Under the pieces are notes generated by a model. That model was not told where the DNA came from. It saw only the letters and a list, made by a program, of their open reading frames with translations, and made no database searches. From IMG/VR virus record IMGVR_UViG_3300021399_000006, positions 14,128 to 78,127 of that record: 64,000 bases of DNA; one strand, written 5' to 3'. This DNA comes from a virus. Positions 19,311 to 62,878 of the stretch are shown here, piece by piece (position 1 is the stretch's first letter; every line of letters begins with the position of its first letter). A program made the position numbers and the translations under genes.

Positions 19311-19337
19311 ATCTTTATCTCCTTTCCTATTGTTGGA

Positions 19338-22168: not shown

Positions 22169-22266
22169 TTTAAATCTCCTTTTCATTTGATTGGGTTTTG
22201 TTTTCCTTTAACTGTATTTATTATATCAAAGGACTTGGCTTTTGTCAAGCCCTTTTTTAAAATTTT

Positions 22267-23614: not shown

Positions 23615-23690
<76 letters not shown>

Positions 23691-24890: not shown

Positions 24891-24917
24891 TATTTTTTAC
24901 ACCATTACCAAAAGTTT

Positions 24918-26129: not shown

Positions 26130-26137
26130 AAAATTTT

Positions 26138-26293
26138 TTACTCCTCTTCTTCTTTATTTAAACTTCTTTCTATATCTTCCTTCATATCATTTATAACGCT
26201 GCCAATAAAAGGGAAGAAAATATTAAGCGCACACCATAATAGAAATGCGCAAATAATAACGATAACTATAAATAATGGGTTTAATACTGCCAT
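26138..26293 (-). CDS. small membrane protein (51 aa)
   Basis: Manual ORF. RBS GGAG. Confidence 0.35.
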   Translation of the reverse strand: MAVLNPLFIVIVIICAFLLWCALNIFFPFIGSVINDMKEDIERSLNKEEEE

Positions 26294-26481
26294 TTTATCT
26301 TACTCCTTTCTTTATATTTTTATAGCTTGAGCTATTGATATAACCATTATAATTATAAAAATTATAATATTATATATACACATATCATCATCATAATCTT
26401 CATAATTAAAAATAGAAGTTCTTTCTATAATATTAAAAAATATAGACATCATACACATTCCCGCAATAAAGGCATTCCAAT

Positions 26482-30843: not shown

Positions 30844-31696
30844 TAAAGAAGCATAGGAAGCCCGTCAGGAACAATTAAAGGGTCAACTTGAAAAGGGTGA
30901 AATTAGTTAGGCACAATATAGAACATTAGTAAGTTCTGAATTTCAAAAACAAAATGAATATATAATGATGCCTAAGATTCCATAGCAAGATGCTATCGGT
31001 AAAGATAATGCTTTTAATGAAAATGACTTTTTCCCATAGGAAGAATTACCTGATTTGGCGGCCGACCTTACGTTAGAAGATAAGAAATATCTCGTTATGA
31101 AGTGGGGCCGCACTTATAAAATGAATCAATTAATTGAACTTTAGAAAAAATATGTTTAGATGACGAATTCGTTTGATATACAAGACGCAGATAGTAAAAA
31201 TTCTTTGATTCTTATTTGTAAGACTTATTTAAAAATGAATTAGGCTTTAGACTGCGGAGATGTAGAAGGATATGGTAAATACAGTAGAACCTATGATATG
31301 TTAAGGAAGTCCGCAAAGTTTACAGCAGCGCAGAATAAAGATGAAAAAGGAGACGTCGTTGATTCAGTTGGTGAATTAGTTGCCTTTTGTTAGAAACATG
31401 AGGGAAGAATACCTAGATTTTAGATAAAACAACCTGATGCTATTGATAAAATTATTGATGACTTAAAAGCATATAATAGAAGCCTTATTTATGAAGATGC
31501 TGCTCTTGCAAGGCAGGTTTAGGATTATTTGAAACAAGCAAGAGCGCAACAGATGAAAAAAGAAGATACTAAAATAGCTAAAGAACAAGGTTTTGATGTA
31601 CCTCAATTAACAGAAGAAGATACGTTAGCTTATAAAGAATTTTTAAGACAATAGGCTGATGAAACTGAAAAGATTACAGGAGGACATTAGGAATGA
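30836..31696 (+). CDS. putative terminase small subunit / DNA-packaging protein (286 aa; TAG-recoded)
   Basis: Position immediately upstream of TerL with a stop-start overlap (ATGA). No TAA/TGA over 860 nt. Confidence 0.4.
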
Positions 31697-33519: not shown

Positions 33520-33879
33520 ATGAAATCTTCTCGTGCAGAAATAAAAATATGTTAGATTTTATAGCAAGCAGGTCTAGTTTTTCAGGAAGAATATAGTTTT
33601 CCCGATTTAATAGGTCGTGGCGGTCATGCTTTACGTTTTGATTTTGCTGTTTTTGATGATGATGGTGAGTTATGGTTTTTAATTTAGTATCAAGGTATTC
33701 AACATTATAAAGCAAAAAGTATTTTTGGAGGAATGTCTGGATTAAATCAACAACAGTATTATGATATGCAGAAACGTTAGTATTGTAAAAAGCATGGTAT
33801 AAAACTTGTAATAATCCCGTATTGGGATGAATATCAGATAAGTTATGATTATATTATGAACTTAGCTGATGTCTATTGA
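33520..33879 (+). CDS. small nuclease-like protein (PD-(D/E)XK-like?), TAG-recoded
   Basis: RBS AAAGGAGA. 119 aa. Confidence 0.35.
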
Positions 33880-35566
33880 AGGCGGTGATTTTTTGGTAAA
33901 TAGAAAAGAAGAGATAAAGAAAAAAGGTTTTAGAATGAGACCTTCTTTACAAGATACCAATGAAACATACTCTCCCGCATTAGACTTTTCAAAAATAAAA
34001 GTAGGTGTAAAAACTCTTCAAGATGCTGTTGTATCTTTAGGAGAATTTAAAAGAATTAATCCTAGACTTGGTGACAAGCAATAGGTACTTAAAGCTATCA
34101 ATAATGGGAATAAAGCTATGATGATAGAAATATCTAATTTCTTTTATCGTACTAGCGGTATTTATGCAAGATTATGTAGATACATGGCGTATCTATATAA
34201 ATATGATTGGTTTATTACTCCTTTTGTAAAAGGATGTTAGGGTTTATTAGACCCTGATAGCGGATTAGGTAGTATATAGACAAGTGAATAGGATAAAGAG
34301 AAAAAGAAACAATTTCAGAATTTCTTTAAAGTATTAAAGTTCTTTTAGGCTTTTGAAGTAAAACGCTTTTGCGGCGAGGTTGCTCTAAAAGTAATAAGAA
34401 ACGGTAGTTATTATGGGTATTTATTACCTCAAGGAAATAAAGTAGTTGTACAATAGTTACCAGTAAAATATTGTAGATCTAGGTTTAAGATTTCAAATCG
34501 TCCAGTAGTAGAATTTAATATGAAATATTTTAGAGATGCGTATCCTGATGAAACACAGCGTTATCGCATATTAAAACTTTTTCCTAAAGATTTCCAAAAA
34601 GGCTACAGATTATATATTGGCGGAAAGCTAAAACCTGATTTCCCTGGAGACGAGTCAGGATGGTATGTATTAGATCCAAAAAGTACCGTAAAATTTAATA
34701 TTAATGAAGAAGATTTCCCTCCTTTTATTTCTGTTATCCCCGCTATAATCGACCTAGATGCCGCACAATAGTTAGATAGAAAAAAGATGGCACAGAAACT
34801 TTTAAAAATCATTATTCAAAAGATGCCATTAGACAAGAATGGTGATTTAATTTTTGATGTTGATGAAGCACAAGAATTGCATAATAATGCTGTTCAAATG
34901 GTTAGTCGTGCTATTGGTGTTGATATTTTAACTACTTTTGCGGATGTTTAGGTTGCGGATATGTCCGATAGAGGAACAACAACTACTATTGATGATTTAT
35001 AGAAAGTATAGAGAACAGTTTATAATGAAGCGGGTGTTTCACAATTACAATTTAACAGTGATGGTAATATAGCATTAAATAATTCCATTGCTAACGATGA
35101 AGCATCTATGTATAATTTATTAACACAGTTCGAATCTTTCTTAAATTTATTGTTAGAACCTTTTAACAAGTCACCTAAAAGATGTTATTATCAAGCACAA
35201 TTCTTGCCTACAACTATTTATAATTATAAGGATTTGGCTAAATTATATAAAGAACATGCGCAAATGGGTTATACGAAAATGCTTCCTCCCGTTGCGTTAG
35301 GCCAAACACAAAGTTCAGTATTAGCAAATGCGTTCTTTGAAAATGATATTCTTGATCTTGTTAGAGTCTTTGTTCCTCCGCTTACTTCTAATGTTATGAA
35401 CGCAGAAGCTTTACAACAAAGATCTGCGGTAAACAGAGGCGGTGAAAATGGACAATCTGGTGGTGGAAAAGAATCTTCTGGTAATAAATCGGAAGGCGCT
35501 GGCCGCCCAGAAAAGCAGGATAATGAAAAAACAGAGAAAACAATAATGAATAAATAGAGTATGTAA
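33869..35566 (+). CDS. portal protein (565 aa; TAG-recoded)
   Basis: Track ORFs 33869..34084, 34520..34771 and 35108..35557 lie in one frame joined by TAG. Position after TerL. Confidence 0.6.
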
Positions 35567-37555: not shown

Positions 37556-38659
37556 ATGGCTTTAGATAGAAAAGAATTACAAGCATTAGCTAAGGCTACT
37601 GCTAAGGCTTCATTAAATCCTTCTACTACTTTTGCTTTTAATAATACAAATTTAACTTTTGAAGCATTAAATGAAACCTTTAGAGATGAAATGAATAAAC
37701 TTGCGGGTACTTATGCTGAGTATCGTGAGAATAAGAATCTTATTTTCAATTTAATCGAAATCGGTTTAGACGAGATTCTTCCTGCAAAGGTTATGCAGAA
37801 TTATGGTCAGTTTGCTGACGTTAAAACTTATGCACAGGGTGACAAACCTGTATTCCGTGTAAGAATTAGTGAGGCTTCTAAAAAGCGTGCTAAGAGTTTC
37901 GTAACAAGAGTTGGTCTTGCTGGTAGATATGAAGTCTTCAAGCTAGATGGCTACACACTGGAAGTTCCTACAGCAGCATACGGCGGAGCAGCTTCTATTG
38001 GATTCGAAGAGTTCCTTGATGGACATATCACAATGAGTGATGTTTATGATTTAGTTCTTGAAGGACTTGATGAAGCTGTTTATCGTGAGATTGCTAAGGC
38101 TCTTGTTGCTATGGCACAAGACGGTGATTTTAATCCTTATAACAAAGCTAATGTTGCAGGATTTGACGAAGCTGAATTTGATCGTCTGATTGCAACCGCG
38201 GATGCTTATGGTCAGAGTACAATTTATTGTACATTTGATTTTGCGGCTACTATGCTTCCTTCTCAGAATATGTGGTCAGATAGTATGAAGGAAGATATTT
38301 GGAACAATGGTTACTTTGCTACATATAAGAGACACAGAGTAATCGTTCTTCCTCAGAGTTTTGAAGATGCTACAAACTCAACAAAGGTTCTTGATCCTCG
38401 TTATGCTTATATTATTCCTACAGGAGCAGAGAAACCTGTTAAGGTTGCTTTTGAAGGACAAACTGCTGTAAGAGAGCATGAGAACGCAGATTGGTCAAGA
38501 GAGATTCAGACTTATAAGAAACTAGGTATTGCAGTTTACAATGTAAATCCTGGTATTTGTGTCTATAAGAATTCTGCTCTTTCAAAGAGTAACGCTTCTA
38601 GATCAACTGGAACTCCTACTATTAGTAAGGATATGACCATTGTAGTGACTAATAATTAA
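37556..38659 (+). CDS. major capsid protein (HK97-fold-like), no TAG
   Basis: Track ORF of 367 aa. Position after the scaffold. Strong terminator follows. Confidence 0.6.
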   Translation: MALDRKELQALAKATAKASLNPSTTFAFNNTNLTFEALNETFRDEMNKLAGTYAEYRENKNLIFNLIEIGLDEILPAKVMQNYGQFADVKTYAQGDKPVFRVRISEASKKRAKSFVTRVGLAGRYEVFKLDGYTLEVPTAAYGGAASIGFEEFLDGHITMSDVYDLVLEGLDEAVYREIAKALVAMAQDGDFNPYNKANVAGFDEAEFDRLIATADAYGQSTIYCTFDFAATMLPSQNMWSDSMKEDIWNNGYFATYKRHRVIVLPQSFEDATNSTKVLDPRYAYIIPTGAEKPVKVAFEGQTAVREHENADWSREIQTYKKLGIAVYNVNPGICVYKNSALSKSNASRSTGTPTISKDMTIVVTNN

Positions 38660-42838: not shown

Positions 42839-43906
42839 ATGAAGTTTGGTGTACGCGAATGTGCAAATATTGTTTTCCGTGCAAAACAAGAGACTGTTAT
42901 TGGAACTTCAAGATTCCATGTTGGTCAACCAGTACTTTATATTGATACAGCAACTACATCTGCAATGGAACAAGCTAGTTCAACTGTGTATGCACAGGGT
43001 GGTCCTGGTAATTCTAGATTAATTGCTTGGGAAGGTGATAAAACTCTTACATTTACTGTTACTGATGCGCTTATCTCTCCTGTTTCTCTTGCTATGTTAT
43101 CAGGAGCGGGTCTTATTAAAGAAGCAGGTAAAAGAGTTCATGTGCATGCAACAACTGCTGCTACAATGACTGTAACTGGTTCTGGTGGTAACTATACAGG
43201 TGTTATTGATTTAACCGATGCTTTAACAGAATTTGGTACAATTAGTCCTGTTATTTCAGGCGAAGGTATCAAAGGAGTTACTGTTGATGCAGGAACAGAT
43301 GCACCTTTATTTATTATTAAAACAGAAGACGATGGTTCTATTACAGGAGATATTGTAACTTCTGGAACAGATATTACTTATACAGTGCAGACAACTGGAT
43401 CAGGTTCAACAGCTAAAGTAACAAAAGCTATTTTAACTATTACAAATCCTTTATGGAATAATGATAGTGCTAAAGCTATTACTTCATCTGTAAATGTATT
43501 AGTTGATTATTATGTTGTTAAGAATGCAGAAAATGTATCTGAAATTCAGATTACACCTGCGGACTTTGCTGGTTACTACTATGTTGAAGCTGATACTCTA
43601 TTCAGAGCACAGGCTACTGGTATTGATATGCCTGCTAACTTAACATTCCCTAATGTTAAAGTTCAGTCTGGATTTACAATCACTATGGCAGGTACAGGTG
43701 ATCCTTCTACATTTGATTTTACAATGGATGCTTTCCCTGGATACACTTATTTTGATAAGTCTAAACAGGTTCTTTGTGTAATTCAAGTTGTTGAAGATAG
43801 CTTAGCTGCTACTTCTGTTGGACATAGCGTAATGCTTGAAAACGATGCTAGAGAGCATAGTAATATTTTAATTGGCGATAGTGATTTATCAGAGCCTCAA
43901 GGCTGA
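42839..43906 (+). CDS. major tail protein with Ig-like domain, no TAG
   Basis: Track ORF of 355 aa. Thr/Gly-rich beta-sandwich-like sequence. Terminator follows. Confidence 0.55.
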   Translation: MKFGVRECANIVFRAKQETVIGTSRFHVGQPVLYIDTATTSAMEQASSTVYAQGGPGNSRLIAWEGDKTLTFTVTDALISPVSLAMLSGAGLIKEAGKRVHVHATTAATMTVTGSGGNYTGVIDLTDALTEFGTISPVISGEGIKGVTVDAGTDAPLFIIKTEDDGSITGDIVTSGTDITYTVQTTGSGSTAKVTKAILTITNPLWNNDSAKAITSSVNVLVDYYVVKNAENVSEIQITPADFAGYYYVEADTLFRAQATGIDMPANLTFPNVKVQSGFTITMAGTGDPSTFDFTMDAFPGYTYFDKSKQVLCVIQVVEDSLAATSVGHSVMLENDAREHSNILIGDSDLSEPQG

Positions 43907-45860: not shown

Positions 45861-48800
45861 ATGGCTCAACAAGGAGGAAGAATAGATTTTTAGGTAGGTT
45901 TTAAAGCCGATAAATCTGGAATCAATGATATTAAAAAGAGTCTGCAAGATTTACAAAGAATAAAAATAGCAAATTTTGACGGGCCACAAGAAGATTTAAA
46001 AAGAATAAAAAATACTGCAAAATAGGTACAAAGTGCGTTAACGAAGGCTTTTAATCCAAATTTAAATACTATAAACTTAAAAACTTTCAATAGTTCATTA
46101 AAAGAATCTGATTTAACAATAAATAAAATATATTCAGATTTTTCTCAGGCTGGAGCACAGGGGCAGGTAGCATTTAATAAAATGGCAACCTCTGTGTTAA
46201 CAACAAATCAGTCTTTAAAACAAACAGAAAATATTGTTACTAAATTAGGATAGACTTTTGTTAATACTATAAAATGGAATATTGCTTCTAGTGCTATTAA
46301 TACTTTTACAAGCGGAGTTCAAAATGCTTTTACTTACGTTTAGCATTTATAGAAATCTTTAACTAATATTAGAATTGTTACTGGCGATTCTCAGCAAAAA
46401 ATGGAAGAGTTTGCGGCATCTGCTAATCGTGCTGCTCAAGAATTAGGACGTAGCACTATGGATTATACCAAAGCCGCCCTTACTTTCTATCAACAGGGTT
46501 TAAATGATGAAGATGTTCAAGCTAGAACTGAAGCCGTTTTAAAAGCACAAAATATTACTGGCGCTGGTTCATAGATGGCAGATTATTTAACTTCTGTATG
46601 GAATGGTTATAAAGTTGCTAATGAATAGGCGTAGGTTTATGTTGATAAACTTGCCGCAGTTGCAGATACTAGTGCATCTGATATGAGTTAGTTAGCTATT
46701 GGTATGTCTAAAGTTGCATCTACCGCTAATACAATGGGTGTGGATATAGACCAATTAAATGCTCAATTAGCTACTGTTATTGCTACAACAAGGCAAGCTC
46801 CAGAAGCTGTCGGTACTGCATTTAAAACCATATACACTCGTATGAATGATATTAAAACTGGATCAGATGAAGCTGAAATCAGTTTAGGAAATTATTCTGG
46901 TAAAATGGCAGAGTTAGGTTTTAATGTTCTTGATGCTACAGGCCATTTAAGAGACACAGGATAGGTTATGTAGGAGATAGGTAGCCGCTGGGAAGATTTA
47001 ACAAGAGAACAACAAGTTTATTTGGCTACTACGATGGGTGGTCAAAGACAGGTTAACCAGTTAATGGCTCTATTTGACAACTGGACTACATATAGTGAAT
47101 TATTAAATACATCCCTTGAATCTGAAGGTACTCTTGCACAGAAAAATTCTGTTTATCTTGAATCTCTTGGGGCTAAGATGGAGCAATTAGGTGCCGCAGG
47201 AGAAAAAGTAAAAGATAACTTAGTTGACAGTTAGAGTTTTGGTAAATTTATAGATATATTAACAAAAGGGACAGATTTATTAGGAACTTTTGTTGAATCT
47301 ATTGATGGTGGCGGTTCAGCTCTACTTGGATTAGGTGGTATTGCAACACAGGTCTTTAGCGGTACAATCGCTAAGGAAATTAATAAAATAGTTGTTAATT
47401 TTCAAAATATGAAATTTAATATGGATCAAGTAAATTAGCAACTAAGATTAATTGAAGATTTTGGTAATTCTCAAGGTTATCAGCAAGGCGCCATTGATGA
47501 AATGTTAAATGTAAAACGTCAGATGATAGATTATAGCGCTGTAATGACGGAATAGGATAATAGAGAATATAATGCTATTGTTAAAAAAATTGGTGCTGAA
47601 CAACAATATATATTATAGTTACAAGATAAAATTGAAAAAGGTAAAGAATATAATGAAATAATTCAACAAGCTGTTTTAGAAAATCAGAAAAATGGAATAG
47701 AAACTTCTTTCAATGATGTTCAAATGGAATTACAACAAAGTATTGAAGATATAACAAAATCTTTATCTGATTTTCGTGGTGCAATGGCATCTGGTTTAGA
47801 AAAAGATAATTTTACAACAGGTCTTATTACAGAATTTGAAATTGTAAATAGTTATTTAAATAATAAATTACCAGAAGGTTTTAATAAAACTTACGAAGAA
47901 TTAACAAAAGAGCGTGATAGATTATTAAAAGAATCAGAGAATATTATAACAGAAGATGTTTCTCGTATAAACCAAAGAATTATCAATCTAATAAAAACTG
48001 CTGTAGGTAGTATTTCGGAAAATTTTAATTTTAGTTTAGATGTAAAAACAAATACAGCAGAAATTGAATTAGCAAGAGATAGAATACAAGAATTAAAGGG
48101 GGATGCTCTTCAATTATAGCAATCTTTAAAACAAGCATTATCTATAAAAGGCGGAGTAGAGGTTGTAGGTGCCTTAGGATCTATGTCTTCTGCAATTTTA
48201 TCTATGCAAAAAGGATTAAGTAGTCTTACTGATGAAAATCTTTCTCCTTTAGAAAAAATGCAAAAAGTATTGATGAGCATAGGATATTCTCTTCCTATGC
48301 TAATAACTAGCTATCAAAAATTATCAACCTGGACTAAGACTTTTACAGGTGCTATAACAAAAGCTATGACTATTCAATAGCAAAAAATGGCTATTGAAAA
48401 AGCAGAAGAAGCATTAAATAAAGCTAAAATAGCAAGAGAGTAGGCAGAAATTGCTTTAAAAAATAAAAATAATGCTTTATTAGTGGTAGAAAATAATTTA
48501 CAATAGAAAGATGTTTCAAGTGCAATGAAATTAGCTGGGGCTAAGCTAAAAGTAAAATAGGCTACAGAGGCGGCGGCCACAGCAAAAGAAAAATAGGCTT
48601 TAGCTACTAAAGAGTTAGAAAGTGCACAGACAAAGTTAAATTTATCTACTAATCTTTTTTCTAAAATAGGTATTGTAGCAGCTATCGTTGCAGTTGTATT
48701 AGTTGCTAAAAAATTATATGAAGTATATAATCAAGATGCAATCGCCGCTTAGAGGGCGGCAAAAGCTGCACAAGAAACAAAGAAGACTTATGATGATTTA

Positions 48801-51800
48801 AAAACTTCTTTGGAAGATACAAAAAAGGCTTTAGAAGATTTACGTTCTTCAGAAAGTGCTTTATAGGGATTATCTCGCGGTACAGAAGAATGGAAAAATG
48901 CATTATAGGATTGTAATAATAAAGTTCTTGAATTAATTTCTAACTATCCACAATTAGCTAAATATGTAGAAAATACTAATGGACAATTAACTATATCTCA
49001 AGAAGGCCAAGAAGCATATTTAAATCAATTAGAGCAAGGGGTAAAAAACGCTCAAAATGCAAGTTATATTGCAAATAGTAATGCTAATTAGCAACAAATA
49101 TATTCAGATGCTGCTGCTATTGGGCATAGAAGTATATACACTTATGAAGATAGACAATCTAACGGTAAAATGGAAGAAGAAAGTGCTTCCGCCACAAGAC
49201 AAGAAGTAATTTAGATTGTTTAGGCTATTGATAAAATTATAGATTCTGGTGGAGATTTATCATAGGGATTAAATGGACTTAAAGATCAAATTGTTAATAA
49301 AACAGGTTTAAATGAAGCTTTAGTTGATGCCGTTTTATCTAATGAGTAGGCGGTCTTAGCTTTAAGAGACCAAATGCAAGAAAATGCTTTAGCCGATAAA
49401 GTTATGTATCAAGGTATGGCTGAAAATAACTTAATGAATAATTCTACTTATAGTGGAGCAGATGATTTAGGTAAACAAGTTATATCAGCTATAGGCGGAG
49501 CAGATTTATAGGCAGCAGTAAAAGATGCTTAGGAAGAATGGCTTAAAAAAATGGAAGGCTCTCAAATGAGCCGTTTTGACAATGCTGCTAGTGCTAATGT
49601 TCAAGAAATTTTAAAAGCATTAAATGATGCTCAAAACACAAATTGGAGTTTAGACTCTAATGCTGTTAGAGGCGGAGATAATGAAAGAACGATTGCTTTT
49701 CTTGATGAACAACATTAGGTTCAAATTTTAACAAAAGAACAAATTGCTTCTACTATTGCTGCAAAACAGGCTTTATAGGAATTAGGCATATCCGCGGAAA
49801 ATGCCGCGAAGATGTTAACTGAGATAGATAGTCTCCAAATTATGGATTCCGCAAAATCTGCAATTAAACAGTGGGTAGCGGGTCAGGATATGACAAATAT
49901 TAATCAAGCTGGGTTAGATAATATCCAAGGTAAAACTCTTAATGAAATATTTGGTGGAGATGAAGAACAGTTACAACAAGCAGCTAAAGCGCGTGGTATT
50001 GAAATTGAAGGTAATGAAGATTGGCAAAGTCAATTAGAGAAGGACTGGAGTGATTCTTGTAATTATTTAAGCACTGCTTTTGATGAAGTTGCAAAAGATG
50101 CAACTGATAACGTAAAAAATGCTTGGGAAACATTAAAAAAAGATAATGACATAAAAGAAGCTACTTTAGGAACTCAACAACAGTTAGTAGAAGATATGAG
50201 ATAGGCTTTTACTAAAGGCGGAGAAGAGGGATTAAAGACTTTAACAGATTTCTTTAGTAAAACTGAAGATTTAGATTCTTTAAAAGAATTGTCTGAAGGA
50301 TTAGATTTTAATACACTTTCAGTTGAAAATTTTAAAACAGCTCTTGAAGAAGCAGGTATAAGTACTTCTGCTACAAACGAAGAAATACAAAGATATATTG
50401 AAACTCAAAAATAGCTATCTGAGGTTTTATCTCCTGAATAGAATTATAAAAATGTTCATGATATTACAGATGGATTAAAAAGAGGAGATACTATAGATGC
50501 TGAGCAAGCAGAAACATTAAAAACGGCGGGGATTAATGTTGATGCATTCTTTTCTCATATGGCAGATGGGTCTTTAAAATTAAAAGTTAATGCAGAAGAT
50601 TTTCAATCTTATATTAATCAAATAACTTTAGAACCATTTAAGAATAAAATTGATGAGTTACAAAATAAAATTAACGGAATACAATCATTCCAACAAACTG
50701 ATTATGCCGCGGGGAATGATAAGGGAAATACTTTTGAAGATTTTTCAAGTATGGTAAGTCCCTATGAACAAGGTTCTTATGATATTGATAAGATAGAAGC
50801 ACAATTATAGTTTTTAAGAGCAATAGGTGAAGAAGATTAGCATATTACTCAAGTAGAAACTGATTTACAAAATTCACGAGTTTCTTCATACGAAAGTTTA
50901 AAAGCTATTTCTGATTTAGTTAAAGAGCATGCCAATGATTATAATGATTTAAATGGTAAAGTAGATTAGTATAAACAAAATATTTAGATTTTAAATGAAC
51001 AAATGCAAAATGCTAATTAGTTACCTTTAGATGCAGATGTTGATACAGATAAATGGGAAAGTTTAACTGAGCATATTCAAGAATATGCTTAGGCAAATGA
51101 CGAGTTAGCAGATTCATTAGCAACTGATATTGATACAGCGTAGGATGTAGCTTAGGCAATTTTACGTTTTGACAGTGCTATTGGATAGGTTAAAGATCAT
51201 TATGAAGAATGGTTAGAAGCATTATCTTCTGATTCTATTGAAGATCAAGTTCAAGCATTAGATGAATTAGAAAATGCTTATTCTGATATTTTGGATTTAC
51301 CTTTTGATAATGTTTTAAGTGATAGTTTTTTACGAAGTGCTGAAAATTTAAATTTATTGCGAGAAGCTGCTAATGGTAGTGAATAGGCTTATAATCAATT
51401 AGCTTAGGCGGCAGCAAAAGATATATTAATAAATTGTGGAATTGATACTTCTCAATTTGACATAGATAAAAGTTATATTGAAAGTTTTATTTTTGACGAA
51501 GGGGCTTTCCCGGATCTTGAAATTGGGGCTAGCTTAGATAGTGAACCGTTTCTAAATGGTTTAACTGATATGATTAATGCCGCTCATATGACACAAGAGC
51601 AAGCAACTGACTATTTAGCAAATATGGGTGTTGACGCTTAGATTATTTAGGCAGATAGCGAGGCAACAGAAACAAAAGAGCAGACAGGATTTCATGGATA
51701 GCCAGTTCCAACACCTTTACCTTATGAAGTTCCTATTGCTAATGGTATGTCAGTAAGTACAGTTGCTTCCACAGGTTTAGTGACTGGAGTAAATTGGGTT

Positions 51801-54800
51801 CCTGATGAAAATTTAATTCAAGATAAAAAAGAAAATAAAGCCTTTTCTTTAAAAGTTGTTTCTGCAAAAAAATCTTCAGGTGGTGGTTTTAAATTTAGAA
51901 ATTCTTCCGCTGGAAATAAAGGTAAAGGCGGCGGCGGCGGAGGAGGTAGAGGTAAGAAAGGTAGAGGAGGAAAAGGTAAGAAGGGATCTTCTAAAACTCC
52001 AAAAACCTAGAAACCTATAACCGATAAACCCGATCGTTATCATGATGTTAATCTTAAATTAAAAGATATTGATAATGATTTAAGTAAGATTCAAAAATAG
52101 CAAGATAAATTAACAGGTAAAGATTTATTAAACAATCTTAATAAACAATTAAAACTTCTTGAAAAACAAGTAGCTACTTATAAAGAAAAACTTGAGTTAG
52201 AAAGACAATAGGCTAATTAGATTCGTAGTCGTTTAAAGAAATAGGGTGCTACCTTTGATCCGAATGGAAATATTTCTAATTATAGCAAACTTCTTACAAA
52301 AGCATTAAATGAATATAATGATGCAGTTGCTAGATATAATAAGATGAGTGCGGAAGAGCAATAGAAAAATAAAGATTTGCTTGAAAACGCTAAATTAAAA
52401 TATGAAAATCTTAAAAAAGATATATAGCGTTACGATAAAATTATATCGGAAGAAATTCCTGGATTAGAGAAATCTATTCAAGAAGCTATCGACAAACAAA
52501 CTGAAATTAATATTCAAAAATTTAAAATTAAAGTTGATTTAGAAATGGATATGTCGGAAGCATAGCGGGAGTTTAATGAATTTGCAAGAAAAGTTAAAAA
52601 ACAATTAAGAGACGATGATATTCTTGGAAATGCTAAATCTTATTTAAAAGATTATTCTTCTTATTATAAAGGTGGATATGACGTTATTCAAGGCCTAACA
52701 GATCAAGTTTTTAATACTTTAGCGGAAATTAATAATATTAACAAACAGGGTATTTCTTCAATATACGGTACCGATAAGGCTGCCGCATTAAAAGATTTAC
52801 AAGAATATACATAGGCATTAATGAGCAATCTTGAAGATATAGAAGATGTAGTTGCTAATATTAAAGATTCTATTTTTGATGCTATTGATAAGGCACAAGA
52901 TGCTTTTGATGAACAAAAGAAAGAATATGAATATATTGCTGATTTAATTGAACATAATCAAAAGGTTGTTGAATTACTATATGGAGAAGATGCTTATAAA
53001 TAGTTATAGAAATATTATGAATTACAAGAGAAAAATAATAAAGACCAATTAGACTTTTTAAGACAGCAAAAAGAAATGTGGTATTCTCGTATGGAAGAAG
53101 AGCGGGTAAGGATGAATAATCTTACTGAAGGTACAAATGCCTGGAAAGAAGCTAACGACCGCTTTGAAGAATATAAAAGACATTGGATGGATGCTGTTGA
53201 TGATATAAATAGCCAGATTGAAGATTCTCTTGATAATTTAATTGATAAATATACTAATGCTGTTGATAAAATCTTTTTAGTCTTTGAAAATAATATTACT
53301 AATGGAAAAGGTTTAGATAATATTGCGGAAGAGTGGTAGCTAATTGGTAAACAAGCGGATCAATACTTAGATAAAGTAAATTCTATGTATGAAATTGATA
53401 AACTTGAAAATGCTTATAGAGATGCTATTGATGATAATGATGGTAATTTAAAAGCCCAACAATCTTTAAATAATTTAATGAATGAACAATTAAAATATTT
53501 AAAAGATAAAGATAAATTAACTCAATATGATGTTGATAGGGCAAATGCTTTGCTACAAATTGAAATTAAACGATTAGCTTTAGAGCAGGCTCGTCAAAGC
53601 AAGACTAAGTTACGTTTAAGAAGAGATGCACAAGGCAATTATACTTATCAGTATACAGCAGATTAGGATGCAACAAGACAAGCTCAACAAGAATTGGCGG
53701 ATGCTTAGAACAGTTTATATAATTTAACAAAGTAGGCATATAAAAATAATTTAGATGATTATTATGATACTACTGAAGAAATGAATGAAAAAATAAGGGA
53801 CGTTTATAAAGATACAACTTTGTCTGCGGAAGAGCAAAATCAAAAAATTGCTATGATTTATGAATATTACGGTGATATTATAAATAATTTAACATAGCAA
53901 AATGAAGATTTAAAGAAATTTATGATGGAAGATACATTTAACGAAATGGCAAAAATGTATAATACCAACGTATAGAATTTTAAGAATATGACAGATGAAG
54001 AAAAAGATATTCTTATGAATGATATGGTCCCTTATTGGAAATCAAGTATTCAAGATATGGCTGATACTTTTGCGGGAGCAGGTGGTTTCGGACCTATAAC
54101 TTAGGATCTGTTTAATGATTTAATAGATAATTCTAAAGATTATCAAGATTCATTAGATGAAATAGGTAAAATTGCAGGTGTAAGTTTAGAAGATATTAAA
54201 AATGCTACTGATGTAAATATTCAAAGAGCAGAAACTTTATTAGAAAAAAATGATGAATTAATAGATTCTTATAATGAAGAAATGTCAAAAGTACAATAGG
54301 TTATTAATGAAGTTGAAAGATTAGTACAAACTTATCAGAGAGCCAAAGATGCCGCTATTCAAGCAACAGAGGCGGCTTATGAATATACTCAAAGAGAAAG
54401 TGCTAATACTGCGAATCAATTAATTGATAATAAAAATACTGCTGGCAAGTCTTAGTATACAAAGGCGGCCGCCTTTGATACAGGTGGATATACTGGAGAT
54501 TGGGGAGATGTAGGTAAAACTGCAATTCTACATGAAAAAGAAATAGTTTTAAATGCTTAGGATACTATTAATCTTTTATCGGCAGTAAAAATCACAAGAA
54601 CGTTAAGTGATATAATTTCTAATTTTAATATGGAACCTATTGGATTAGGAAGAGTAGTTAATAATACTAATAATTCTTCTAATAGTACCTCTCAAAATAT
54701 TACTATACATGCGGATTTCCCTAACGTTACCGAAAAATCTGAAATCGAAGCCGCATTTAATAATCTTGTTAATAAAGCAAGTCAATATGCTTTTAGAAAA

Positions 54801-54803
54801 TAA
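45861..54803 (+). CDS. tail tape measure protein, 2,980 aa, TAG-recoded (about 100 in-frame TAG)
   Basis: Ten track ORFs (46704 to 53666) all share frame 0 with ATG 45861 (RBS AGGAGGAG). No TAA/TGA until 54801-03. TP901-type core motifs. GGGGGGGRGKKGRGGKGKKG segment. Confidence 0.8.
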
Positions 54804-54928: not shown

Positions 54929-57900
54929 ATGAGTGGTGAACAATATTCTGATGCTCTTTTATAGGCAATGTCTGTTATTGCAGATCGTACAGTTTCAAAT
55001 GCGAAATATAATAAAACCATTCAAGCTACTGTAGTAGAATGTATAGACTCTACTATAGGAGAATATAAAATAAAATATCAAAATGGGTATTGGACTGCAT
55101 ATAGTTAGAATGTTAATACTACTTATATGCCTGGAGCGAGTGTTTATATAAATATTCCAAATGGAGATATGTCTTCTATAAAAACTATTGTCGGCACAAC
55201 TCAAAAACTTGGAATAAATTATATTAACGTAATTCCAGAATAGGGACAATATGAAGATAATGGTAATAATATTTTAACAAATAATCAAGGATATAGTTTA
55301 TCTTCATATAAAACGGAAAATTTAATTATTTTTGAAGAAGGTAACGATAATTTTTACGATGCGGATGCCGCAAACATATATATAAAAAGTTCTTCTCATT
55401 TACAGTTTGCTTTTGATATTCAAACAGATTTAAATTATGAACAGAGATATAATGGTAATTATGGAATTAAGTTTTATTTAAAATTTAAAGATAATACTTT
55501 TGAAGAGACAGTAACGAGAGTTTATACTTTTGATATTTATAAGATGGAAGGTAATCCATATTCTTTCTTTAATAAAACGAATCAGAAAGCTGTTTTTGAA
55601 ATAGACGGTGCTAATTTTATAGGAATCGAAAAAATAGAATTATTTACATAGCGTTTTCCAAATCAAGATGAAAATGCGAAAGATGATATTTTTATTTCTA
55701 ATTTATCTATTAAAGGTATGAATCAATTATCTCAAGAAGAAATGGATTCTGTATCACTTTCTTTTGTTGCAAGAAGAGGATATATTTTTAATGATAATTC
55801 TGATGACAACGATACACGTCCAATTTAGGCTGTTGTAAGAGTTTTAGGAAAAGTTGTAAATGAAGTAAGCCAAAATTTAAAATTTTATTGGTTTGTTCAA
55901 AATGTAAGTATCACTGAAAGTAATCCTTTTTATTTAAAATACGGTGGATATGGATGGAAATGTTTAAATAATTATAATGTTTTATCTTCAGATGAAAATG
56001 GAAATCCTTCAACTATAGAATACATTCCCTCTAAACCTACTTTTTCTATAGCAAAAAAAGATGTAAAAATAAAATAGCAAAAATATAAATGTGTAGTATT
56101 ATACGGAGATAGTTCTTTTTCAAAAGAATTCGTTATAATAAATGAAGATGCTTCTTATAAAATGATTATTGTTTCTGATGCTGGAACTTAGTTTATTGCG
56201 GATGCAGGCTCCCCCACTTTAACATGTTATGTTATGGATAGAAATTAGGAAGAAGTTGATTCTATTATTTATCGTTGGGGAGTTATTAATAATCAAGGTA
56301 TTTATAGTTATTTACCTGAAGGTAATATTAATATAGACGAAAATATAGAATATGGTTATCCAGAAGCATTAGAAGAATATAATCAATTAAAAGAAGGAAT
56401 TGAAAATCATTCGATTTTGCAATATGAAAAAAATGAAAAAGATAAAGACTTATCTAATATTAAAAGATTAGAATGGCTAGAAGATAGAATAAATACTTTT
56501 AAACAACAACAAACAGTTTATCAAAACAAAATATTTTTTGTCGATATAAAAAGAATTGATAATTTTAGTACATATATATGTACGGTAATGGATGAAAATA
56601 ATAATGTTTTGGGAACGCAAGAAATTACTTTAATTAATAAAAAGACTTCTAATGGTGGATATTCTCTTGTTATAAACAACGGAACGCAAGTTTTTAATTA
56701 TAATGAAGAAGGTATTAGTCCTTGTGAGGATTAGAATATTAAATATGTAATTCCTGAATTAACTTTTACTCTATATAATGAAAAAGGGGAAGAGGTTAAT
56801 CAGGATTATATTAATGTTAATAATATTAAATGGTTTTTCCCTAATAAAGAAAATAGTTTATTAACACATAATTATGATAATACTCCTTTAGATTTTTATA
56901 ATCAAAAAACTTTTTCTTATGGTATTAGTAAAAAATATTTTTCTAATAAACAATAGAACGATATAAAATTAGAAGTAACTTATAATGGGTATACATTAAA
57001 AGCTAAAACAAATTTAACTTTTACTAAAGAAGGTTTTTTAGGAACAAATGGTACAGGCTTAGTTTTAAAAATAGTTCCTGAGGGATTAACAGGAACTAGT
57101 CCTTGTTTAAAAATATCTCCTTCAAAAGCAAATCAAAAAAAATTAATTGGAAAATTTAATTTTGATAGTTTAAAAGCATAGTTATGGGATGGAGAACAGC
57201 AAATAGAAAAGGCAGATTCTTATTTTTGGTAGATATTAATACCAGTAAAAAAAACGGAAACTTTTTTAAAAATAAAAACTTCATCAACATTAACAACAAC
57301 ATCTTCTTTTATTAAATTAGAAGTAAATAATAGTAATATTAAAAAAACATTAACAGATAACCCTTATAACATTATAAAATTGACAGTAACTTATAACGGT
57401 AAAAAAATATATACAACATTACCTATTTGTATTTATAAAGTTACAGTAGACTCACAATATGATATTGAATTAAAAGAAAATTCAGGTTTTAAATATGTTT
57501 TTTATGCTTAGGACGGAACTCGTCCTAATTATAATGATAAAACACCTTTTACAATTACCGTAAAACAAAAAATTGGTAATATAGATTTTGAAGAAATTAA
57601 TACTGTTGCTTCAAAAGATTTATAGTTTTCTTATGTAGCTAATGGTAATTTTAAAAATACTTCTCAAAAAGATAAAACAATTCAAACTTTTGCACCAATA
57701 CCTTTATCTTATTTTAATGGATAGACTTTAGATAATTATGTTTATTGTTTAATTACAAAAAATAATAGCCAAGATGGAACTATTACAATCGGTTAGGCTT
57801 TAATTCCAATTCATATGATGCTTAATCGTTATGGACATGCCGCTTTAAATGATTGGGATGGTAATTCTATTGATATAGGAAATACTTCTCATGATACTAT

Positions 57901-59488
57901 TTTAGCCCCACAAGTTGGAGCAGGATAGAAAAATAAGAATGGTGAATTTTCAGGAATATTGATGGGCAGTGTAAAAATTCCTAATAAAACTTAGAATGGT
58001 TTATTTGGTTATTCTAAAGGTGCCCGTACTATATTTTTAGATGCAGAAACAGGAAATGCTAATTTTGGTATTGCAGGAAATGGTCAAATTCAAATTAATG
58101 CTGAACAAAGTATTATTACTGGTGGAGGTTATAATATAAATAATTATAACTCTGATATAAAAAAAGATACAAATAAAGAAGGTATGTTAATTCACCTTCA
58201 AGCACCAGAAATTAGATTTGGTTCTAAAAAATTTTATGTTACTTCTGAAGGTTAGCTATATGCACAAGGTGGTGGCCAAATTGCAGGATGGAATATTAGG
58301 GATACTAGTTTAAGTAAAAGTATTTTTAATAAAAAAGGTGAAGAAATTAGTAGTACTGGTATGAGTTCTGATAATAGTGATAAAACTAATTTAGCTTTTT
58401 GGGCAGGAAACCAGTTTAATGTAGATTTTAATGGACATGTAAATGCAACCTCTATTGATATAGGTGGAGATAATAAAAATCACCAAGATGTCCATATTAC
58501 AAAAGGAACAATTTATAGTGGTAAACATAAACCTTTTAACAGTACAGAGGATGGATTCTTTTTAAATTATGCAGGTTTATCTATTGGGGCAGATTTTAGA
58601 GTAACTTCTTCAGGATATTTAACAGCAAAACAAGGAACTTTTGGAAATGCTACTAAGAATTTTACGATAGGAATTTTTGAGGATAAGGATGGAATTACTT
58701 ATACATCTCTTAAAGGAAATAATGTATATTTAGGAACTGATAAAATATCGTTAGGTTCTAATTTTTCTGTAGATAATACGGGTAACTTAACAGCTTCTTC
58801 TGGTAAAATTGCAAGTTGGTATTTTACAGATGGTGCTTTTTATAATCAAACTGCTAAAGATGCTGCTGATAAAGACAATGAAGTTGGATATGGAAAATGG
58901 AACGATAAAACGAAAAAATATGATAGCATTTATGAAAAAGGTATGTATTTTGGAAACGGTGGAATAAGATTTGGTGCTAATTTTCATGTAGGTAGTAATG
59001 GTAATATGTTTGCTATCGCTGGTACTATAGGTGGATGGAGTATTGGTTCTAGTTCTTTAACTGGAGGTAGTTTAAAATTAAATAGTGATGGTTCTTTATC
59101 AGGACCTGGTTGGAGCATTGCTTCTAACGGAGAAGCTACTTTTAGTAATGTAAAAAGTGCTAATATAAAAGGTGGGACTATATCAGGAGGAAGTAGAACA
59201 GGTGGTAGTATTGATCCAAGTAAAGTTAAGGCTCCCTATGGCAGTGGTCCTTCTGGCAGTGGCTTTAATGGAGGCACTTTAAATCAATGGTGTAAAAATA
59301 TTGTTACTACAAGTATTACTGCGGATTATATTACAAGTAAATTGAATTAGTCAGACTGGTCTATAACTAAAGACCTTTCAATTTGGGGGGATGCTTTTTA
59401 TAAAGGTTCTGAAATTGCTACTCGAGATTGGGTAAATACTCAATTAACACACTATGCAAAAAAGGGTGAGACACCTTCTTCAGGGTAA
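54929..59488 (+). CDS. large tail / host-recognition protein, 1,519 aa, TAG-recoded, with beta-helix-like Gly-rich repeats
   Basis: RBS AAAGGAGG. Track ORFs 56417..56734 and 58361..59350 in the same frame. Confidence 0.6.
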
Positions 59489-59534: not shown

Positions 59535-59735
59535 GATGGAAAATATTAACTTAAAAATGGCGGAAGTAGATGCCGCATTGACATATTACCTACAGCAATT
59601 ACCAGTTGGTGTAGCTTATTATATATTAAAAGATAAAGTAAGATAGCTTGAATTATTATATTATAATCAAGCAAGACAAGAGCAAGAAAATATAAAATCT
59701 TCTGAAGAAGAAGCAAAGGAGTCAACAGATGAGTA
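59535..59735 (+). CDS. small protein (66 aa; one TAG)
   Basis: RBS AAGGAGA. Confidence 0.35.
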
Positions 59736-59848
59736 AAACAGTAGTTACAAAAGTATTTAAAAAGAATAGTAACGGATAGTTTTCATCAGCAGTTCCTATT
59801 GGAACCTCTTCTGAATATGTATCTGTTTCTAAGAATGGAAACCAAGTG

Positions 59849-61546
59849 ATGAGTTTAAATACTTTAATTGGTGATCCTTCTGTTTTTACAGAAACTTCAT
59901 TATCAGATAAAGTAATAGAAATAGAAGAAAAAACAGGAATTGCAGATGCTTCCGCTACTCAAAAAGGATTAATGTCATCTGCGGATTTTAAAAAAATAAA
60001 TCCTCAAATTATACAAAACGATGGAGATTTAAATAATATAACAAATATAGGTTGGTACAAAATTGTTTATAATCCTTCTGCTGATAAAAAAATAGCAAGT
60101 AATGTTCCTGAAGGAATTTTAGCTTCTTGTTGGATGTAGGTTCAACAATTATCTAATTCTAGCTTCTTTCAAAAAATTAGGACTCCTTCAGGAATTTATT
60201 TTGAAAGACAATTTACTAATAATCTTTGGTCAGATTGGAGTAGATTAGATAAAACTATGACTGCGGCAACCGATAGCACAGACGGTACGTTAGGAACAGT
60301 ACCAGCTCCAGGAAGAGGACAACAAAATAATTTTTTAAGAGGAGACGGAACGTGGGCGCCAGTTGAAAATACATGGGTAGAAAATACCGTTAATACAAAT
60401 GGATATGTTCTTGCTCCTTCTTCAAGTAATTCAAATAAAGTTTGGAAAACAGATATAAACGGTAACCCTGGATGGAGAGACGAAGAAAAAACTTCTTATA
60501 ATGTATTAGGGGCAAGTGGTGATAGCACTACAAACGGTGTACTTGTTCCTCTACCTGCTTCAAGTCAACAAAATAATAATAGTTTTTTAAGAGGAAATGG
60601 AACTTGGAGTGGTTTAAATGGAAGGTTATTAACAGAAACGGAATATAATAGATTAAACGCTCAAGGACTTTTCTTTGGAGCAAAAATTGAATTTAATCCT
60701 CCTTCAGAAGCAACGTATGGAGGTTTTATTGATTTCCATCATAAAAATGGAACGAGTGACGATTATAGCGCAAGAATTATAGAATGGACACCAGGAACTC
60801 TTACTCTTTATCATAATATAGATGTTTTAAACAAAACTACTACAAAAACTTTAGAAGTAGCTAATACTGTTAATGTAGGAGGAAATTCTAATATAGAAGG
60901 AAATTTAACAGTTAGGTCTGATTTTGGTGTTACTGGAGGCGCTATCGTAAGAGGGACTTTTAGAGTTGATAATGGTCTTTATGCATCAGGTGGAGCTACA
61001 ATTTCAGGAAAAACTGAAATAAAAGGAATTTTGAAAACTCAAAGGGCTGATAACGGTGAAAACGGTCATACTATAGTAGTAAGTTCTCTTGCTGAAACGG
61101 GTGGAGTTTTTATGTTAAATAGTTATACAGGAAAAACTTTACAGGTGCTTGGAAACTGGGGAACAAAAGGTAAAACAAGTTCACAATATATTGCTGTAAG
61201 TTCTTCAGATATACGATTAAAAGAGAATATAAAAGAAAGTCATGTAAGCGGTTTATAGTTAATAAATAAAATTCCATTATATGAATTTGATTGGAAAAGA
61301 GATAAACAGCATCAGAAAATTGGTTTTATAGCAGATTAGTTAGAAAAAATAGATTCTAATTTAAGTCTTGGTAGTTAGAAACCATATGATGAAAATGGAA
61401 ATCCTATTTATAAGAGTGTAAATACTTTTTATTTACAAGGTTTTGAAATTAAAGCTATTCAAGAGTTATCTCAACAAAACCAAGAACTTAAAAAAGAAAT
61501 TGATTCTTTAAAGAAAGAAATTAAAGAATTAAAGAAAAAGGTATAA
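59849..61546 (+). CDS. tail fiber protein with C-terminal intramolecular chaperone/auto-proteolytic domain (peptidase S74-like, SSDIRLKENI). TAG-recoded.
   Basis: Track ORFs 59846..60139 and 60257..61258 in the same frame. The start is uncertain: an upstream ATG at 59728 sits in another frame. Confidence 0.6.
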
Positions 61547-61552: not shown

Positions 61553-61592
61553 GGGAAACGATAAAATAAATCGTTTCCCTTTTTTCTTTTTA
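61553..61592. terminator. bidirectional Rho-independent terminator between convergent late genes
   Basis: AAAAAAAAGGGAAACGAU-AAAAUAA-AUCGUUUCCCUUUUUUCUUUUU. Confidence 0.7.
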
Positions 61593-62072
61593 AAAAGCAC
61601 TTTTATGCTATTTAATATAAGCTATTCCTAAACATATGGCATCGCTTATATCATCATTAACATCTATATTATAAATCATTTTAACTAAACGCTTACTATT
61701 AGCTTTTAAAGTATCTCGTCTTATCCCTGGTCCAGTTTGTATTCCACATAATCTTCGCCAATGCCCAGATACATATAAATCTACTTTATAATTTAAAATA
61801 CCTAATTTTGTAACAGTTTCTCCTTGAAGATATATTAATGCTTTATATACTGCTTGGTTTTGTTTAACATCCTATGGTAAAATTTCTTCCATTACAATAT
61901 TTGTAGGCTTATATTTTTTACATATTTCTACAATTCTATTACTCATACTTTCGATTCTTTTATATACGTTTCGATCATTCTATATTAAACATTCATAATG
62001 TATTAATTTGCCCTACTAAAATATTGCAATTCCGCTAGATTTAGTAGAGGCATCTATCGCTAAAGTTTTCAT
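61593..62072 (-). CDS. ruvC: RuvC-like Holliday junction resolvase (159 aa; TAG-recoded)
   Basis: MKTLAIDASTKSSGIAIF start. RBS GGAGG. Three in-frame TAG. Confidence 0.6.
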
Positions 62073-62175: not shown

Positions 62176-62622
62176 TTATTTACTTCCACTACTTCCAAAC
62201 CCGCCTTCCCCTCGTGCAGTTTCATCTAATTCTGTAACTTCTTCAAAAGTTAAATTAAATTTAGGAAGTAATGCAAATTGAGCAATTCTTTCATGCGGCT
62301 CTATTTTTTTCATACTATCTCGATCATTATGAACTGCTACTTTAATCTATCCTCTATAATCGGAATCAATAACACCAACACAATTTGCTAAGCGGAGGCC
62401 CTTCTTTGTAGCGATGCCGCTTCTTGGGAAAAGTCCACCCCAATAATCTTTAGGGATTTCCATAGCAAGTCCTGTTCCAATTAATTCTGTTTTATGCGGC
62501 CATATATATGTATTTGTTTCCGTATTAGCATATAAATCCCACATAGCGGCATCCTAGCTTCCGCAATATGGAAGTTTAGCATTTTCATCAAGTCTCTTAA
62601 CTTTAATATTTATATTATTCAT
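62176..62622 (-). CDS. dut: dUTPase (148 aa; two in-frame TAG)
   Basis: Track ORF 62347..62544 extended. Motifs GLFPRSG and GVIDSDYRG-[TAG]-IKV. Confidence 0.75.
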
Positions 62623-62878
62623 CAGCTACATCTTCCTCCGCGCAATAAATAGGCATTAACTCACAATCAGGTTCTTTCTCTTGACAAAATTCTTTAGTAA
62701 TAATAACTCGTCTCCATTCATCAATAATTTCACCTTTTTGCTTTTGTGTTTTAATTTCATTGCTAGTTTTTATGACAGTATATTGAGGATTTGTTTTAGC
62801 CTATTGAATAAGTTTTGTTGCTTCTGACTATGAATCACAACGGTACTGCTAAGTAACTTTAATTAAATATCTGCTCAT
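62615..62878 (-). CDS. hypothetical protein (87 aa; TAG-recoded)
   Basis: Manual ORF. RBS AAAGGAGA. Stop overlaps the dut start. Confidence 0.4.

Follow-up and report, generated by a model that had tools for sequence, protein, structure and literature searches.

The stretch analysed here, 64,000 nucleotides of the IMG/VR virus record IMGVR_UViG_3300021399_000006 (positions 14,128 to 78,127; called the window in the following), is part of an SPbeta-like siphovirus of about 142-145 kb that stems from gut metagenomes and has a probable Bacillota host. In the late genes, the lysis genes, and some DNA-metabolism genes of this phage TAG is a sense codon, and TAA and TGA remain stops. Based on the comparison with related phages, TAG has very probably been reassigned from stop to glutamate. 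Several comparative lines of evidence, in part independent of each other, and one positive control speak strongly for this assignment. The initial annotation of the window had already recognised the recoding but had regarded glutamine (genetic code 15) as the most plausible meaning and glutamate as the alternative. The relatives turn this order around.

TAG as a sense codon

The recoding can best be introduced with the gene in which it had first been noticed.

45861-54803, plus strand: tail tape measure gene, 2,980 codons, 71 TAG, stop TAA (PF10145)

This region consists of a single frame of 8,943 nt (divisible by three) that runs from an ATG, with AAAGGAGGAG 5' of it, to a TAA and contains neither a TGA nor an internal TAA. 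The frame had been described correctly as interrupted by TAG only, but the number of TAG codons had been overestimated (about 100 instead of 71). The two off-frames contain 140+25 (=165) and 213+182 (=395) TAA+TGA codons, respectively, and with the rate taken from these off-frames the probability of 2,980 codons without TAA or TGA is about 1e-128. Under the standard code the region splits into 13 open reading frames (ORFs) of at least 60 residues, three of which are short and on the minus strand. The remaining ten are all in the frame of position 45861, as had been seen before, and the proposed identity as a tape measure protein agrees with the stored Pfam hit on the identical gene call (PF10145, PhageMin_Tail).

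The same holds for the window as a whole, whose ORFs of at least 100 residues amount to 19,599 residues if only TAA and TGA are taken as stops and to 8,254 residues under the standard code (raw six-frame sums, overlapping ORFs included). The difference between the two halves of the window is apparent from the following regions.

2594-28819: early and middle region, picked minus-strand ORFs stop in TAA/TGA, 3 TAG in 2,711 codons
28972-61546, plus strand: late block, 22 genes, 218 TAG, all stops TAA/TGA

With TAG read as sense, the 22 genes of the late block have the same direction and tile the region head to tail. Their 10,629 codons comprise 218 in-frame TAG, 610 GAA, and 99 GAG codons but no in-frame TAA or TGA. 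TAA and TGA still terminate genes (15 and seven of the 22, respectively), as the initial annotation had stated, and no predicted gene is closed by TAG. The early set consists of 18 picked minus-strand ORFs of at least 90 residues. Two of its three TAG codons are in a weakly supported ORF (12896-13180) and the third is a near-start codon (9284-9511). The assignment of genes to early and late expression is taken from gene content and not from measurement. In addition to the tape measure gene, the pattern had been reported for terL, portal, scaffold, tail, RuvC, dut, and lysin genes. It is present in terL, portal, scaffold, RuvC, dut, and the lysin genes, with the correction that terL contains 21 and not about 17 TAG codons. 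Conserved late genes are thus broken by in-frame TAG alone and become full-length as soon as TAG is read as sense. The base following TAG does not show any special context compared to other sense codons.

Could the TAG codons nevertheless be true stops in fragmented or pseudogenised genes, be subject to rare read-through, or be assembly or sequencing artefacts? This explanation would be in line with the absence of a tRNA(CUA) from the window and with the mere fragments obtained by standard-code gene calling. However, it would have to account for 218 in-frame TAG codons without any TAA or TGA in 22 late genes, of which the tape measure gene alone has the probability given above. Protein homology to relatives continues across the TAG positions. 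The same TAG codons are found in independent assemblies (ENA, JGI, Logan, IMG/VR), TAG sites are conserved within the clade, and a tRNA(CUA) is encoded on the same contig. The probability that the TAG codons are stops is therefore close to nil. In practice, the frame statistics together with the conservation across assemblies already refute this explanation. TAG is a sense codon because of the long frame without TAA and TGA, the tiling of the 22 genes, the homology across TAG codons, and the TAG sites shared with relatives.

The residue inserted at TAG

For identifying the amino acid, 29 related IMG/VR loci with capsid identities of 51-93% to the window were compared. The late proteins of the window were aligned with TAG masked as X, and the subject codon opposite each window TAG was read. 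Reading codons sidesteps the circularity of database proteins that have already been translated with table 15. Excluding subject stops, 1,665 aligned codons were obtained, the most frequent of which encode the following residues.

Glu: 929 (GAA 784, GAG 145), 56%
Asp: 208, 12%
Gln: 103, 6%
Lys: 85, 5%

In the same alignments, the Glu codons of the window face E, D, K, and Q with frequencies of.64,.09,.05, and.04, while its Gln codons face Q, K, and E with frequencies of.58,.10, and.08. Because the profile at TAG matches that of the window's own Glu codons, TAG most likely encodes glutamate. The log-likelihoods at the TAG sites over all relatives are -2889 for E, -4512 for D, and -4738 for Q, a gap between E and Q of about 1,850. 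If sites instead of codons are counted, the most frequent residue is Glu at 80 of the 133 TAG sites, followed by Asp (15), Gln (7), and Lys (7). With TAG as glutamate, TAG would supply 218 of the 927 Glu positions of the late block (about 24%) and would be used more often than GAG.

Relatives that use the standard code provide a comparison in which TAG is practically absent on the subject side. L041 has no TAG in 5,051 aligned codons, L040 has a single one, and the cultured Enterococcus phage EF1 has none in 4,526. Opposite the window TAGs, L040 and L041 together have E 82, D 17, K 11, and Q 10 of 160 codons (log-likelihood gap between E and Q of 127), and EF1 has E 32, S 11, K 10, D 10, and Q 7 (E -250.5, Q -271.5). 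The three standard-code references together give -570 for E and -703 for Q, a gap of 133. The amino acid composition points in the same direction. In the columns aligned to L041 the window has 6.6% E and 2.0% TAG versus 8.4% E in L041, and 4.0% Gln versus 4.5%. Compared to EF1, the window lacks 108 Glu residues and has 102 TAG codons.

The predominance of Glu is also seen in single genes, for which the residues aligned to TAG were tabulated across homologues (including TerL, portal, and dUTPase) as the initial annotation had proposed.

28972-30084, plus strand: first late-block gene, sigma-factor-like, 10 TAG (phrog_5767)
31693-33432, plus strand: terminase large subunit (TerL), 21 TAG (phrog_2)
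54929-59488, plus strand: large tail protein, 1,519 residues, 20 TAG (ORF with TAG as sense)
62176-62631, minus strand: dUTPase, 3 TAG (Pfam dUTPase, E = 1e-25)
1340-2161, minus strand: GH114 glycoside hydrolase of the lysis region, 8 TAG (Pfam)

Glu is the plurality residue among relatives at nine of the ten TAG sites of the sigma-factor-like gene and at 17 of the 21 sites of TerL. At TerL positions 137, 461, and 481 every aligned outgroup has Glu (L041, L042, phAss-1, EF1, and L040 where aligned), and the clade members show Glu or TAG only. In the tape measure gene, the codons of L051 opposite the window TAGs are TAG (15), E (14), K (5), D (3), and Q (2), and the TAG codons of L051 itself face Glu of the window 27 times and Gln six times. 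Similarly, ten of 15 TAG codons of L051 in the 1,519-residue tail protein fall on E of the window. The dUTPase TAG following GVIDSDYRG, a motif that is present as quoted in the initial annotation, is aligned with T, T, E, E, and E in the five best solved structures, and the TAG in GS-x-DAA with E in the two best ones. The TAG codons of the GH114 gene are found on the E of 'DWPGE' of Ega3 and of 'NRGFE' and 'VVLEP' of PelA, although these alignments to solved structures are weak.

The method does not return Glu for every phage. In the description of the nearest named relative, phAss-1 (OQ749652), TAG is translated to Gln, 41 ORFs are recoded, and three tRNA-Sup(CTA) genes are listed (Babkin et al. 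2023, PMC10607447). This phage served as positive control. In the same likelihood test phAss-1 scores best with Gln (Q -223.8, E -248.5), as do L042/L043 (Q -315.1, E -355.1). Therefore, the method is not biased toward Glu. Tested against the three standard-code references, the window and 20 of 20 clade members examined give Glu.

These results have to be weighed against the reading of the current gene callers, which is that TAG encodes glutamine as in crAss-like phages, Lak phages, and phAss-1. Gln is the sole experimentally validated meaning of TAG in phages (PMC9523058), the nearest named phage is annotated accordingly, the anticodon CUA is one base from the Gln anticodon CUG, and public collections contain proteins of the clade with Q at TAG. 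The initial annotation had in addition put forward the Q of Dut of Escherichia coli, which follows the YQG motif; this Q is a minority state in the dUTPase comparison. More generally, it is hard to reconcile glutamine with 6% Gln and 56% Glu at TAG when true Gln codons give 58% Gln, and with the log-likelihood gaps reported above for all relatives, for L040/L041, and for the three standard-code references. Moreover, a Gln reading would give a Gln content of 6.0%, compared to 4.5% in the standard-code orthologues, and Glu would still fall short by about 2%. A blindness of the method for Gln is contradicted by the results for phAss-1 and L042. Thus, we consider glutamine very unlikely and glutamate the best reading of TAG.

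The suppressor tRNA and a possible mechanism

The only tRNA gene found in the window is a tRNA-Lys(UUU) at 15159-15232 (minus strand), and a tRNA(CUA) is absent from it. The tRNA-Lys gene stands alone among early genes, far from the main array, and differs in sequence from the tRNA-Lys(UUU) of the array. The search for a tRNA with the anticodon CUA, recommended in the initial annotation, was extended beyond the window to about 80 kb in all and revealed one on the same contig. There, left of the window, an array of about 30 tRNA genes contains one tRNA(CUA) at 15377-15449 of L014. Because L014 1-4353 corresponds to window positions 4353-1 with 100% identity and no mismatch, the tRNA(CUA) is located about 11.0 kb beyond the left edge of the window. 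A Pfam search with ten early proteins of the window did not reveal a release factor, an aminoacyl-tRNA synthetase, or any other translation factor, with about 62 kb of the genome (NODE_124 37586-99765) outside of the about 80 kb examined. A tRNA(CUA) is also encoded by the clade relatives L010, L011, L013, and L052, at the same position of the array between tRNA-Val and tRNA-Ser(GCU).

The tRNA(CUA) scores 56 bits on the Rfam tRNA model and folds into a class I cloverleaf. Its D-loop contains GG and two inserted bases, its T-loop reads TTCGAAT, its anticodon stem comprises five base pairs, and its variable loop has four nucleotides. The ARAGORN label 'tRNA-Pyl', which is given to any CUA anticodon, would suggest pyrrolysine as the meaning of TAG. 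However, the canonical cloverleaf obtained with the general tRNA model, the absence of pyl genes from the about 80 kb examined, and the aligned residues, which are Glu and Asp and not Lys-like, make pyrrolysine extremely improbable. We rejected it because of the ordinary cloverleaf and the Glu/Asp profile.

The anticodon CUA is as close to CUC (Glu) as it is to CUG (Gln), with one base difference to each. Several features of the molecule are like those of the phage tRNA-Glu(CUC), with which it shares C1-G72, G2·U71, U8-C9, and a D-stem of three base pairs. Over the acceptor stem and positions 8-9, 12 of 17 positions match the phage tRNA-Glu(CUC) in a comparison done by eye, because the automatic stem finder misplaced the register of tRNA-Glu, while the other tRNAs of the array, scored automatically, match at nine positions at most. 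The phage tRNA-Gln genes have A1-U72 and D-loops of seven to eight nucleotides compared to nine in tRNA(CUA). The tRNA(CUA) genes also differ between the two phages. In each of the three genes of phAss-1 the first pair is weak (A-U, U-A, or U·C), as in tRNA-Gln, whereas the window phage has a single gene in the 80 kb examined, which starts with C1-G72. The bacterial amidotransferase GatCAB accepts tRNA-Gln via U1-A72 and rejects tRNA-Glu via G1-C72 and an extra D-loop base U20B (PMC2811023).

From these features and, for the timing of the late genes, in analogy to the code 15 phages, the following scenario can be proposed. The phage tRNA(CUA) would be charged with Glu by the glutamyl-tRNA synthetase (GluRS) of the host, because CUA is one base from CUC, C1-G72 is like the phage tRNA-Glu, and the D-loop carries two extra bases. 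In a host with the indirect pathway, the Glu on tRNA(CUA) would stay unamidated, since C1-G72 and an enlarged D-loop are features by which GatCAB refuses tRNA-Glu. The TAG-free early genes would be translated under the standard code of the host, and the array including the tRNA(CUA) would be expressed before the TAG-bearing genes could be completed. Structural, packaging, and lysis genes with TAG would be translated to full length only after the suppressor tRNA had built up. Virion genes with the heaviest translation might avoid TAG because its decoding competes with release factor 1. From the distribution of TAG we infer that the codon may delay or regulate the late genes.

Several observations weigh against the glutamate assignment and this scenario. 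The whole-sequence identity of the tRNA(CUA) to 96 phage tRNAs does not single out any isotype, including Glu. The tRNA(CUA) genes of L010, at 16861-16933, and of IMGVR_UViG_3300037400_003528 are very different, with G1·U72 and A73, although they are found at the same array position. As the L010-type gene is part of a genome that also scores Glu, the tRNA features are not uniform in the clade. GluRS normally reads anticodon position 36 and would here have to charge a CUA anticodon. The regulatory role is read solely from where the TAG codons lie, and the assignment of Glu comes entirely from comparison. Finally, the about 6% Gln at TAG-aligned positions leaves room for a minor Gln fraction or mixed charging.

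Such a mixed decoding would mean that tRNA(CUA) inserts partly Glu and partly Gln, either through mischarging by the glutaminyl-tRNA synthetase or through partial amidation by GatCAB. E. coli amber suppressors built from tRNA-Glu are partly mischarged with Gln. Gln and Lys each account for 5-6% of the residues at TAG-aligned sites, and the sequence of tRNA(CUA) varies among clade members. However, the profile of the TAG sites is indistinguishable from that of ordinary Glu codons (Gln.06 versus.04), and C1-G72 together with the enlarged D-loop argue against the use by GatCAB. Mixed decoding is therefore unlikely, and an unmixed glutamate remains the preferred meaning of TAG.

The region left of the window contains further unusual genes. 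A tRNA-like gene with an anticodon loop of eight nucleotides, UUUUUGAC, is located about 4.1 kb to the left of window position 1 at L014 8474-8545 and is also found at L013 8332-8403 and L005 16671-16742 with base changes in the acceptor stem between the contigs. ARAGORN assigns a four-base anticodon 'tttg' (Gln or Lys-like) to this gene, which scores 50.8 bits on the Rfam tRNA model. It could be a tRNA similar to frameshift suppressors, a quadruplet-reading tRNA, or a decayed tRNA-Gln. A second tRNA-like gene with an eight-nucleotide anticodon loop, UUGCAUAC (ARAGORN 'gcat'), is present at L014 19355-19430, L013 19013-19088, and L010 19278-19353, and is kept between the window phage and an 83% identical relative. 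A full-length ROOL RNA (RF03087, 276.7 bits, E = 5e-63) is located inside the array at L014 12342-12936. Exact-sequence scans of IMG/VR with the tRNA(CUA) core, the unusual tRNA with the eight-nucleotide loop, and the start of the capsid gene did not give any match.

Other recoded genes, relatives, and implications

The remaining genes of known identity comprise virion proteins of the late block and genes close to both edges of the window.

33869-35566, plus strand: portal protein, 11 TAG (phrog_2739)
37556-38659, plus strand: major capsid protein (YonB family), 0 TAG (Pfam hit on record)
42839-43906, plus strand: tail tube protein (YomU_Tube), 0 TAG (PHROG/stored Pfam hits)
59729-61546, plus strand: tail fibre with Peptidase_S74 chaperone domain, 5 TAG (Pfam)
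61590-62072, minus strand: RuvC-like resolvase, 5 TAG, IF-TAG-TAG-GK (weak Pfam RuvC match, E = 0.0023)
2-1327, minus strand: CW_7 and metallo-beta-lactamase (Apyc1-like) protein running off the left edge, C-terminal 442 of 580 codons, 8 TAG

The YonD-like scaffold gene contains six TAG codons. The capsid gene has zero or one TAG in all 31 aligned relatives and the tail tube gene between zero and two, in Glu and Gln lineages alike. The recoded codon seems to be avoided in the virion proteins of highest abundance. A Pfam search did not give any match for TerL, portal, capsid, or tube, whose identities were obtained from PHROGs and from stored Pfam hits. PHROGs matched TerL, the portal, a virion protein, and a sigma-like factor. 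Further matches of TerL are two families of 'unknown function', phrog_15503 with residues 22-232 and phrog_24618 with residues 351-576, which look like the two halves of recoded TerLs called under the standard code. PHROGs therefore probably contains fragment families from recoded phages. For the RuvC-like protein, in which the IF-x-x-GK motif with its TAG codons is present as noted in the initial annotation, a comparison with solved structures gave no match. The gene running off the left edge is complete at L014 3027-4769 (580 residues), and its metallo-beta-lactamase domain is labelled Anti-Pycsar_Apyc1 (PF23023) in the stored Pfam hits. Judged by its domains, this protein of the lysis region may join wall-binding repeats to an anti-defence domain that degrades cyclic nucleotides. 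The early region encodes SPFH/Band-7, DUF5758, and DprA/SLOG-like proteins, among the ORFs 25194-26129 (minus strand), 24414-24890 (minus strand), and 6238-6708 (plus strand).

The capsid protein is encoded on three ENA contigs of 124.8-144.9 kb, for which the gene caller had already read through TAG. One of these, NODE_124 (ERZ12302851), is 99.98-100% identical to the window. The stored Pfam hits on the identical genes include YonG_N, YonD_N, YonB, YomW, YomV_2nd, YomU_Tube, YomO, and PhageMin_Tail. With its Yon/Yom virion module, the long tape measure protein, and contigs of these sizes the phage has the characteristics of the SPbeta-like group. Window positions 9176-26415 (17.2 kb) are missing from NODE_124, whose two ends lie exactly there, and are rearranged or more divergent in NODE_135 (144,946 bp) and SHIW14-1 scaffold_144 (85-96% identity, indels). 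This part of the early region is either variable or difficult to assemble. No match was obtained when 8 kb of the late block were compared by megablast with 50,697 phage records, and an IMG/VR search with the N-terminus of the tail protein retrieved a near-identical contig only.

Among the named phages, phAss-1, assigned to the 'Caudoviricetes code 15 clade', is closest with 52% capsid identity, followed by standard-code Enterococcus phages (EF1, 37%). Computed over TerL, portal, YonD, capsid, and tube, the lineages have the following identities to the Glu clade, which comprises at least 27 IMG/VR contigs and several ENA, JGI, and Logan assemblies.

Within the Glu clade (TAG as Glu): at least 63%
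L040/L041 (standard code): 53-59%
L042 (TAG as Gln): 52-56%
phAss-1 (TAG as Gln): 41-44%
EF1 (standard code): 36-40%

One phage assemblage thus contains standard-code lineages (L040/L041, EF1), TAG-to-Gln lineages (phAss-1, L042/L043), and the TAG-to-Glu clade. Inside the clade, TAG sites are shared far more often than expected (66 observed versus 3.0 expected, and 30 versus 2.4). With the Gln lineages they are not shared (2 observed versus 1.3 expected, and 2 versus 1.4 for phAss-1). The lack of common TAG sites suggests separate captures of TAG, as judged from the sites and not from a formal tree. It seems rather probable that TAG stands for glutamate in a clade of SPbeta-like phages from gut and rumen, and that TAG has been captured independently and with different meanings within one phage family. 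Two short contigs with capsid homologues (L047, 70%; L048, 81%) were binned in rumen metagenome-assembled genomes of 'uncultured Erysipelotrichaceae'. These bins are a weak hint to the host on which we do not rely.

Recoding of TAG in late genes together with a phage tRNA(CUA) is well known, and what would be new, as far as can be judged from comparing sequences, is glutamate as the inserted residue. Like the window phage, the code 15 phages (crAss-like, Lak, Jade/Sapphire/Agate; Borges et al. 2022; Peters et al. 2022, PMC9523058) have TAG in late structural and lysis genes, standard-code early genes, a tRNA(CUA), TAA and TGA as stops, and likely a delay of late translation. The window phage differs from the crAss-like and Lak phages in the residue, most likely Glu, and in being an SPbeta-like siphovirus of a probable Bacillota host. 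Another recoded phage is phAss-1 of the proposed Phassvirus group from the human gut, which belongs to the same SPbeta/EF1-like assemblage of 125-145 kb, has a very long tape measure protein and a large tRNA array, and has recoded TerL, portal, and tail genes. However, its core proteins are only about 44% identical, its TAG behaves as Gln and not as Glu, and the standard-code lineage L040/L041 is closer to the clade of the window than phAss-1 is. The 80-86% nucleotide identity and the synteny expected within the genus Phassvirus are not found, and the two could at most belong to a wider monophyletic group. SPbeta and EF1 share the homologous virion module (YonG, YonD, YonB, YomW, YomV, YomU tube, YomO) but do not have in-frame TAG codons.

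To our knowledge, the only established natural code with TAG as Glu is the nuclear code of peritrich ciliates (table 30), in which both TAA and TAG encode Glu. That code is eukaryotic and nuclear, whereas the change described here affects only a virus, with a host that presumably follows the standard code. Only the TAG half of table 30 applies to the window phage, as TAA is its main stop, ends 15 of the 22 late genes, and is never found in frame. In the literature searched, no report of TAG as Glu in any virus or prokaryote was found. For phages, TAG as Trp, Ile, or Tyr has been proposed from tRNA-isotype predictions only (PMC10879173), and the accepted meanings of recoded stops are Gln for TAG and Trp for TGA.

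If true, the assignment would have practical consequences. Gene callers put any TAG-recoded phage under table 15, and about 2% of the residues of the late proteins of the clade would then be wrong. One public collection already contains the TerL with Gln at 21 of 21 TAG sites, and the Glu version is absent from it. Such mistranslations would swap a charged for a neutral residue, at some sites an invariant or possibly catalytic glutamate, and would affect structure prediction, the building of profiles, and proteomic searches, in which peptides spanning a TAG would be missed by 0.98 Da. A natural Glu-inserting amber suppressor tRNA for a standard-code Bacillota host would also be a possible tool for engineering the genetic code.

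For the phages themselves, a clade translating TAG to Glu would add a natural genetic code. The recruited tRNA would then decide which residue is inserted. With two meanings of one stop codon in two related lineages, what a recaptured stop comes to encode would be a matter of circumstance and not a fixed rule.

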